A stretch of DNA of 56,537 nucleotides, the filler included, from Dugesia japonica (lineage: Eukaryota): the NCBI GenBank assembly GCA_001938525.1. It is 6 parts of 6 records of this genome, joined end to end, with 100 filler letters (N's around TTAATTAATTAA, not from the genome) between each part and the next. Parts side by side here need not be neighbours in the genome. Positions count along the whole stretch, not along the records: positions 27,444 to 36,967 come from MQRL01169391.1; 5 more parts are not named here. One strand, written 5' to 3'. Position 1 is the first letter of the stretch. The number at the start of each line of letters is the position of its first letter. Below, one piece after another: positions 32,008 to 33,458 of this stretch. The position numbers and the translations under genes are program-made. The notes beneath the pieces are model-generated. The model ran no database searches. It had not been told where the DNA came from and was given only the letters and a program-made list of their open reading frames with translations.

Positions 32008-33458
32008 ATGCCTGAAGTAAAAGTATTATGTCTAAAATGTAATAATTATCTATGTAAATCAAATATAAGAAGACATGAAAGAGTTTGTATGAAAAAGTAC
32101 CCTGAAAGATGGAATAGTCAAAATCAATCAACACAAACAATAGAAAGTGGAGGCCACTCTGGTGGAGAGGAATCGAGACAGGGGGAGATGAATCGAGACA
32201 AGGTGGAGATCTACAATCTTCTAAAATAACAAGTACTTTATTAAAACCTTTTACAACAGAAAAGTATCCAGGTGAAAGAAATTTATTCAAACACAATTAT
32301 ACTGGACCAGGAACTAGATTAGATATTAGATTGGATGAGAATTTAAATCCAAAACCAGGAGAAGAACCTGTAAATAGAGTAGATGAAGCTGCATTAAAAC
32401 ATGATATTGCATACAATTCAACAGATATTAGAGATAGACATTTAGCAGATGTAAACATGATTCATGATTTAAATAATATAGAAAATCCAACAACTTTAGA
32501 AAAAATACAAAGAGGTTTAGTTAAATTAGCAATGAAGGGAAAGATAATGGTTGGATCTGGAGTGAATACGACAGGTTCTGGAGTAAACAACTCAATAGCC
32601 AAAGAATTACATAAACCTTTTAATAAAAATAAAAATTTTCTCAAAGTAAAATTATTCTTTAAAGATGAAACTTGGTCAGCAGATTTAATGTTTTTAGGTT
32701 CACCTAAAGGTTGGAAAGGAAATAAAGATAAGGGATTAACAACAGTCTTAGTAGTAATAGATTTATTTACTAGATTTTTATTTTTAGAAGTAATAGATAA
32801 TAAAACAGGAAAAGAAGTTAAAAAAAGGATTAGAAAATATAATAGAAAAAAGTAATCGAATTCCTAATAATTTATGGGTTGATCATGGTAGAGAATTTTA
32901 TAATAAAGTTTTTCAAGAGTTTTGTCTAGTTAATGATATAAATTTATATTCTACATCATTAAATACTGAACTTCAAGGTAAAGCAGTTTTTGTTGAAAGA
33001 GTAATTAGAACATTTAAAAGAAAATTGTACAAAATTTTTACTGAACAAGGTAATCAAAAATGGAATAAAGATTTATTAGAATTTATAGTAGAAGATTATA
33101 ATAATACAATTCATAGTAGTATAAACAAAACACCAAAAGAAGCTAGTGAAGACCCCAATCTTTTAAATAAAAAAACAATTAAATGGAATCTTAGTAATAA
33201 AAACTTTAAATCACATAAAGAAAACTACCAACTAGTTGGAAGATTGGTGATAGAGTAAGAATCTTTAGAATTAAAAAAAGATTTGAAAAAGGTTATACAA
33301 TAAATTGGTCAGAAAATATTTATACAATATACAAAATTTATAGAGAAAATAATACATCACAACCATGGGATGGAGTATTAACTTATGGAATTCAAGGCCT
33401 TTAAGGAAATCCTGAATTTGGTAGATTCTATGCTAATGAGCTCCAGTTGACTAGATAG
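32008..33458 (+). pseudogene. Zn-finger - phospholipase A2 - DDE (rve) integrase polyprotein, with three frameshifts and one internal stop
   Basis: CLKC...RRHERVC; NYTGPGTRL...PVNRVDEAALKHDIAY...RHLAD (parvoviral-type PLA2); in the same frame AKELHKP, WSADL, VIDLFTRF. Then LWVDHGREFYNK, VERVIRTFKRKL, YNNTIHSSINKTP, IGDRVRI...FEKGYTINWS, GRFYANELQ. Frameshifts near 32185, 32822 and ~33200. Confidence 0.88.

Follow-up and report, generated by a model that had tools for sequence, protein, structure and literature searches.

A gene of the planarian Dugesia japonica places a zinc finger, a parvovirus-VP1-type PLA2 and an rve integrase one behind the other, and the PLA2 is flanked on either side by short glycine motifs. 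It lies in the window, the whole 56,537-nucleotide stretch of DNA analyzed here, and raises the question of whether such a fusion is taken apart at these motifs and by which enzyme. Our comparisons of related sequences make it likely that in working relatives of this element its own C5-type cysteine protease cuts the fusion after GG at the start of PLA2 and within GX↓G at its end (the arrow marks the presumed scissile bond).

The plus strand between 27.8 and 34.0 kb of the window represents a decayed, truncated Polinton, in which zinc-finger and polymerase-upstream fragments, three ORFs, a capsid gene, the Zn finger-PLA2-integrase gene, and a broken packaging ATPase follow each other (Table 1). 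The hallmarks of Polinton/Maverick elements (Polintoviricetes), namely, rve integrase, major capsid protein (MCP) of the double jelly-roll kind, and A32-type ATPase, were all found, integrase and ATPase in broken form. No penton, protease, or terminal inverted repeats were found in the window copy, which we read as truncation. There was also no match to the PolB core in this copy, where only the upstream fragment represents the polymerase; PF03175 is present in the relatives L029 and L017. The ORFs of 232, 134, and 91 amino acids ahead of the capsid gene (29262-30646) matched no Pfam family and nothing among the related loci; the 91-amino-acid ORF contains a hydrophobic stretch, and the 232-amino-acid ORF one KGG↓A and a 21-bp repeat. 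At 28740-29240, the polymerase-upstream fragment ends abruptly; a G/C-rich patch and tandem repeats of 63 bp and 10/20 bp come after it, and this could be a rearranged end or a further insertion. Decayed remnants of retrotransposons (RT, RNase H, integrase) and the HTH of a Mos1-type transposase were seen at 17203-17520, 22917-25499, 42208-44079, and 49607-49969.

The element is present in multiple copies in the host, as about 6,100 contigs from each of two DNA runs map to 31100-34200, mostly 85-95% alike. Its only named relatives are gene models of the mollusc Lottia gigantea, and it is probably an animal provirus. The window copy is a pseudogene and would not itself be processed. From two raw RNA runs, 7 and 5 reads matched in part, all less than 90% alike, and none in those samples fitted the window copy.

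Table 1. Features of the decayed Polinton, in window coordinates
Feature	Position	Strand	Support or remark
Zinc fingers and fragment resembling the region before the polymerase ORF of relatives	27787..28739	+	Pfam zf matches; 39% identity to the L017 sequence preceding the PolB ORF
Double jelly-roll MCP gene, open	30694..31998	+	PF21738 E 5e-19; 38-42% identity to MCPs of L005, L019, L074
Polyprotein N-terminal leader: CxxC-x12-HxxxC zinc finger and low-complexity linker	32008..32229	+	54% identity over 24 aa to pre-PLA2 leader of L058, E 9e-5
ESGG and HSGG, extra diglycines of the linker, Zn-finger frame	32143..32166 (ESGG 32143-32154, HSGG 32155-32166)	+	Not individually conserved
Tandem repeat within which the reading frame shifts; origin of the apparent second RQGG	32161..32213	+	Contigs of two studies agree
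RQGG↓D, conserved candidate cut site, PLA2 N-border	32196..32210 (GG 32202-32207)	+	Within segment of pLDDT <50
Parvovirus-VP1-type PLA2 with YTGPGT loop, HD, downstream Asp	32208..32552	+	PF08398 E 2e-8, passing the cut-off
KIMVGS↓G, conserved candidate cut site, PLA2 C-border	32541..32561	+	First Gly closes last PLA2 helix; next residues pLDDT <50
21-nt duplication yielding second GSG in PLA2-integrase linker	32553..32594	+	Sequence
rve integrase and C-terminal domain, in three frames, breaks near 32820 and 33240	32595..33452	+	tblastn with intact P0001/P0002; weak PF00665 matches on two pieces
A32/FtsK-type packaging ATPase, with stops, truncated	33484..34014	+	39% identity to L005 ATPase

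A frame break separates the zinc-finger leader from PLA2 in the window copy. Contigs of two studies (one run perhaps being that from which the window itself derives) cross it with 0 differences, and the break is thus real in the DNA. A programmed frameshift at this position was rejected, considering that the upstream frame has no X-XXY-YYZ slippery heptamer and that the gene contains two further breaks. The leader itself matched no Pfam family, and profile comparison of its finger with an alignment of intact relatives (A2, see below) was not significant. Contig depth was about 10-20 over 32036-32139, within this leader, versus tens of thousands over PLA2, indicating that leaders vary strongly among host copies; single contigs of other host copies carried different linker repeats, also containing GGA-GGA at the nucleotide level. 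Foldseek found a weak likeness of the PLA2 to rice PLA2 (E 0.19), and with the PLA2-linker-integrase model it returned nothing at E ≤ 0.001.

The preliminary description of this locus had listed ESGG, HSGG, and two copies of RQGG as protease sites between finger and PLA2. ESGG, HSGG, and one RQGG are present, whereas the second RQGG exists only under the frame repair applied at that time: in the PLA2 frame RQGG occurs once, at 32196-32207 and followed by DLQ, and the other repeat unit reads RQGE in the Zn-finger frame. ESGG and HSGG turned out to be local repeats, the conserved site being one GG↓D; the leaders of P0005, P0008, and P0009 likewise contain repeated GG. Between PLA2 and integrase, the motif stretch KIMVGSGVNTTGSGVN, located at 32541-32588 and described as partly tandemly duplicated, indeed includes a 21-nt duplication, with comparable in-frame duplications in P0046, P0005, P0008, and P0332. 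Owing to this duplication, the additional GG and GSG do not count as separate observations. The independent motifs among those listed are therefore two, GG↓D and GS↓G.

Searching for longer proteins returned 57 matches, of which 38 were intact PLA2-integrase proteins and the other 19 gene models from Lottia. Alignment A2, built from 32 of the 38 intact proteins, retrieved 80 metagenome loci (L numbers) and 150 representatives, and a PLA2 profile from which both motifs had been excluded matched 152 proteins or ORFs, 105 of them with an integrase in the same frame. The relatives found by both show that the PLA2-integrase fusion is a real and widespread architecture. Scans of viral contigs recovered no loci, and a scan of genome contigs yielded 2 short fragments only. 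Rows were anchored on the conserved Asp, and thus blind to glycines; 121 of the 152 had the anchor and enough of the domain to be usable, and 31 were dropped.

Conservation of the boundary motifs in homologs, which the preliminary description had named as a check, was borne out, and their position is locked. Within the 32-row alignment of intact relatives, 25 rows have a GG or GxG beginning at the N-site column, and 30 have one beginning at the C-site column. Apart from these, just one column exceeds 4 rows, that of the PLA2-internal GPG loop with 26 rows, and GPG also matches GX↓G. The two linkers are otherwise poor in glycine (4.7% and 3.1%), and the motif glycines use all four codons.

At the N-border, clustering at 70% identity left 37 PLA2s with a leader of at least 5 residues. 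GG falls within the last 5 residues before PLA2 in 25 of these, and at least one Gly in all 37 (18 with GG↓D, 7 with GG one or two residues earlier, 6 with G-S/A, and 6 with a single Gly), against a background of 29 in 604 five-residue windows of the same leaders. Leaders of several unrelated kinds precede the GG, including a C2H2-like finger, a DUF5679 ribbon, and short peptides. PLA2s starting no more than 4 residues from Met had Gly in 0 of 10 cases, a contrast that is partly built in because so short a leader leaves scant room for Gly; upstream in-frame stops back the leaderless starts in L003, L007, L008, L045, and L052. From these leaderless forms it follows that GG is dispensable for the PLA2 itself. 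A PLA2-core tree of 75 rows shows 9 changes of the leader and 9 of Gly; the independent pairs that fall on supported branches were concordant in 5 of 5 cases (p = 0.06, from a tree with few columns). Gain and loss of the N-motif thus go with the partner in front. In L057, L059, L060, L064, and L066, zinc ribbon and PLA2 are out of frame at A-runs right before GG↓D, four by -1 and one by +1. N-myristoylation after cutting was dropped as an idea, since the usual new N-terminus would be Asp, which would not suit the substrate rules.

The C-border was scored in 47 clusters of in-frame fusions, left after removal of the 19 spliced models from Lottia, of 3 rows with a wrong anchor, and of rows without a C end. 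GX↓G was present in 38, GG↓X in 4, and neither in 5. Beyond the motif, the linker to the integrase spans 4-89 residues, and at a control junction, between integrase core and C-terminal domain, GG or GxG occurred in 0 of the 28 rows that could be parsed out of 47. P3 is hydrophobic, and the glycines at P1 and P1' replace each other (4/8 versus 0/38, probably reflecting few independent events). For comparison, 67 short PLA2 proteins without integrase, some of which may be truncated fusions, formed 26 stand-alone clusters: 14 have the full site, 3 end exactly at P1, 5 have the first Gly only, and 4 were scored without a site, one of these (P0184) being misanchored. The full site is rarer here (14/26) than in fusions (42/47; p = 0.001), that is, this motif too goes with its flanking partner. 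One of the P1 endings is common to three members of its cluster, and the two closest relatives of the window PLA2 (73-74% identity) end in IGQ and LGG, in protein sequences alone. In a marine clade of stand-alone PLA2s (L055-L066), GAG plus 1-4 residues is kept and a separate integrase gene follows; the first Gly is also retained in most of a leaderless stand-alone clade. In two AlphaFold models the last helix of PLA2 runs up to the first Gly of GxG, suggesting that this Gly is probably structural too, at least in part. A divergent stand-alone clade (P0267-P0304) lacks the N-terminal GG; its leader is short and acidic, and its single Gly is followed by a hydrophobic C-terminal helix.

Relatives with rearranged domains carry the motif at the new joint. 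Both integrase-chromodomain-PLA2 proteins found have it ahead of PLA2, as GD↓G and GK↓G, and end in G-I and G-L-S. Three of the representatives are protease-integrase fusions, and a search with one of them gave 199 matches, of which 120 were listed and, with one protein added, made up a set of 121; in this set 120 could be parsed, and 117 of these have GG or GxG just before the first integrase helix, corresponding to 13 of 14 clusters (in the one exception, GNG is visible by eye). P0097, P0123, P0071, and P0339-P0456 belong to a large family of C5-protease-integrase(-chromodomain) fusions with G-x-G-I-x-W at the joint. Most stand-alone integrases have short N-termini without the motif, as judged by eye. 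A counter-example is the zinc-ribbon-integrase fusion P0160, which has no such motif at its joint.

In the DUF5679-ribbon lineage, the integrase that follows the GLG of PLA2 is in the -1 frame at an A-run heptamer in L027, L028, L032, L071, L073, L075, L077, L078, L079, and L080, in the +1 frame in L024, and in frame in L026, L029, L041, L042, and L047. The -1 junctions could be programmed frameshifts giving an excess of PLA2 over integrase, or homopolymer slippage; RNA structure downstream of them was not above shuffles in 10 of 10 cases (best z -1.4).

The search for a protease in the family, likewise suggested in the preliminary description, succeeded in relatives. Among the 80 loci, 6 have a C5-like gene, whose product of 133-163 amino acids shows His-Trp, Asp/Asn, Gln, and Cys-Gly motifs; three of the 6 had built the profile, and in L003, L010, and L029 the gene shares a contig with a whole PLA2-integrase gene. 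The matches of this protein to Pfam protease families lie below the curated cut-offs; the nearest Atlas clusters (score 0.96-0.98) have Peptidase_C5 in 13-62% of members, and the best PDB sequence matches of the L029 protein are ASFV S273R (E 0.007) and adenain (E 0.13). L029 also has a gene that we read as penton-like, a label to which no Pfam match corresponds. No protease was found on the contigs of the clade nearest to the window element, all at most 6.7 kb long and too short to show one. At L010:2182-3483 (minus strand), protease and pX-like protein form one fusion whose junction itself has no GG or GxG.

Which rule would such an enzyme follow? The preliminary description had invoked the adenain consensus with M/I/L at P4, to which MVGS-G seemed to conform. 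This did not hold up, and the Met is incidental: P4 is M/I/L in 2 of 18 N-sites, 3 of 47 C-sites, and 3 of 115 protease-integrase fusions among the matches listed, Lys in 28 of the 47 C-sites, and Arg at the window N-site. The other adenain feature, Gly at P2 together with Gly at P1 or P1', is found at both sites. Throughout their pX-like and core proteins, these elements carry motifs of the type GG↓X or GX↓G. All 7 pX-like proteins picked from the loci, five of them with sub-threshold Adeno_PX matches, contain K[ED]GG↓[FL]LPL with Lys at P4, which we take to correspond to an AVP site of adenovirus pX. Adenain (AVP) is described to cut (M/I/L)XGG↓X and (M/I/L)XGX↓G, P4 being somewhat relaxed (PMC4246237). 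Mass spectrometry placed three cuts of the mavirus protease MVP at GG↓X and one at GY↓G, and the available text states no rule for P4 (PMC6048507), and ASFV pS273R cleaves the polyproteins pp220 and pp62 at Gly-Gly-X (PMC10308890). As judged by sequence, the window sites fit a P4-free rule of the mavirus/ASFV type, not strict adenain, with GG↓X and GX↓G situated at domain borders that are exposed by prediction. The proposal of maturation cleavage at both PLA2 borders is thereby upheld with respect to motif conservation and a family protease but not to adenain specificity, and the cut itself would be carried out, as we infer, by that protease.

If only the N-terminal GG↓D were cut, removing the leader, the C-terminal G-x-G would be a helix cap and tail of a PLA2 that stays joined to the integrase. 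The position of the first Gly at the helix end in the models, a hydrophobic P3 as in an amphipathic helix, and retention of the motif in the marine stand-alone PLA2s that end GAG plus 1-4 residues agree with this reading. However, it is the second Gly that is preferentially lost where nothing follows, P1 and P1' glycines substitute mutually, and GX↓G precedes the integrase also when its partner is the protease and not PLA2; we therefore regard a single cut as unlikely. It is rather improbable that nothing is cut at all and that both motifs are structural or flexible-hinge glycines. Glycine is common at domain edges and helix ends, and both motifs do lie at domain edges, in low-confidence or helix-end positions. 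Against this stand the paucity of glycine in the rest of the linkers, the locking of the motifs to the domain edge over the whole range of linker lengths, their absence from the control junction, and the leaderless PLA2s, which manage without an N-terminal GG.

Cleavage by another diglycine-reading enzyme, be it a vOTU of the polymerase or a host deubiquitinase or SUMO protease, appears very improbable. RQGG resembles the C-termini of ubiquitin and SUMO, and no C5 protease is encoded in the window. Moreover, Polinton pPolBs carry a predicted active vOTU that was proposed to process the polymerase (PMC11161782). Yet GX↓G is a pattern of clan CE viral proteases (PMC6048507; PMC4246237), and the same motifs occur throughout the pX-like and core proteins and right behind the protease in protease-integrase fusions.

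Cleavage at both borders by the element's own protease suggests the following course of events. The precursor would be packaged into virions, perhaps kept on the DNA by its finger or a basic leader, and the protease would cut GG↓D and GX↓G during maturation, inside the particle. The freed PLA2, predicted to be membrane-lytic, may then help to breach the endosome, and the freed integrase would travel with the genome. A part for PLA2 activity in entry is suggested by analogy with parvovirus VP1 and mavirus MV13; endosome breaching has been proposed for Polinton lipases, also by analogy with parvoviruses (PMC4642659).

It is tempting to speculate further, though we hold this only tentatively, that many Polintons load their integrase in retroviral style, as the tail of a virion polyprotein (behind PLA2 or protease, in one lineage via a -1 frameshift) from which the maturation protease would free it at a portable GX↓G. 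If so, integrase loading would be a Gag-Pol-like strategy that evolved convergently in dsDNA viruses. The PLA2-integrase fusion also ties entry, through PLA2, and integration together in one precursor. The cleavage rule, the specific substrates, and the protease-integrase fusions as single-gene self-cleaving test cases are assayable without virus. Novelty is limited, since the protease class and the GG↓X / GX↓G rule are already known. Polinton PLA2X genes and adenain-like proteases have been described (PMC8502044; PMC5803895; PMC3671162), adenain motifs were noted in adomavirus LO6 (10.1101/341131), and possible -1 frameshifts were noted for penton and hexon-adenain (PMC11071296). We found no account of PLA2-integrase or protease-integrase polyproteins or their sites in the literature, including the accessible parts of PMC12220804, 10.64898/2026.10.13.758929, and 10.64898/2026.06.19.733378; subscription journals, Repbase, and bioRxiv supplements could hold one.

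The preliminary description had likened the proposed maturation to retroviral Pol processing, transferred to a dsDNA virus. Processing of polyproteins in dsDNA viruses is not new, being known from ASFV, adenovirus, and mavirus; the integrase among the products is the unusual part. In retroviral Gag-Pol and Pol, the integrase is the last part of the polyprotein and is freed by the viral aspartic protease. The protease-integrase fusions and possible -1 frameshifts of the relatives echo this arrangement, but here the protease is of the cysteine type, there is no reverse transcriptase, and the genome is dsDNA, which makes it an analogy and not a homology of processing.

Further parallels are found among dsDNA viruses. 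ASFV cuts a polyprotein at diglycines with a clan CE protease (PMC10308890), the products being structural core-shell proteins, neither integrase nor lipase. Adenovirus AVP shares with the sites described here P2 Gly with Gly at P1 or P1', a related protease fold, and, in these Polintons, pX-like substrates (PMC4246237); the hydrophobic P4, however, is not kept here, and the substrates include an integrase. The PLA2X of adintoviruses and Polintons is a parvovirus-VP1-like PLA2 in the virion module, proposed to act in membrane penetration (PMC8502044; PMC4642659). A pX-like domain forms its C-terminal part, and the integrase is encoded apart from it, whereas the present family joins PLA2 to the integrase, with pX as a gene of its own in relatives. 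Another is the virophage mavirus, an integrase-bearing virus of the PRD1-adenovirus lineage with a clan CE protease that has MCP and MV13 as substrates and acts on GG↓X and GX↓G; its lipase-like virion protein MV13 is found in virions as two fragments, around GK↓G, and its integrase MV02 is packaged, with no cleavage reported in the available text (PMC6048507). In mavirus, lipase and integrase are encoded by separate genes, whereas here one PLA2-integrase ORF carries candidate sites on both sides of PLA2.
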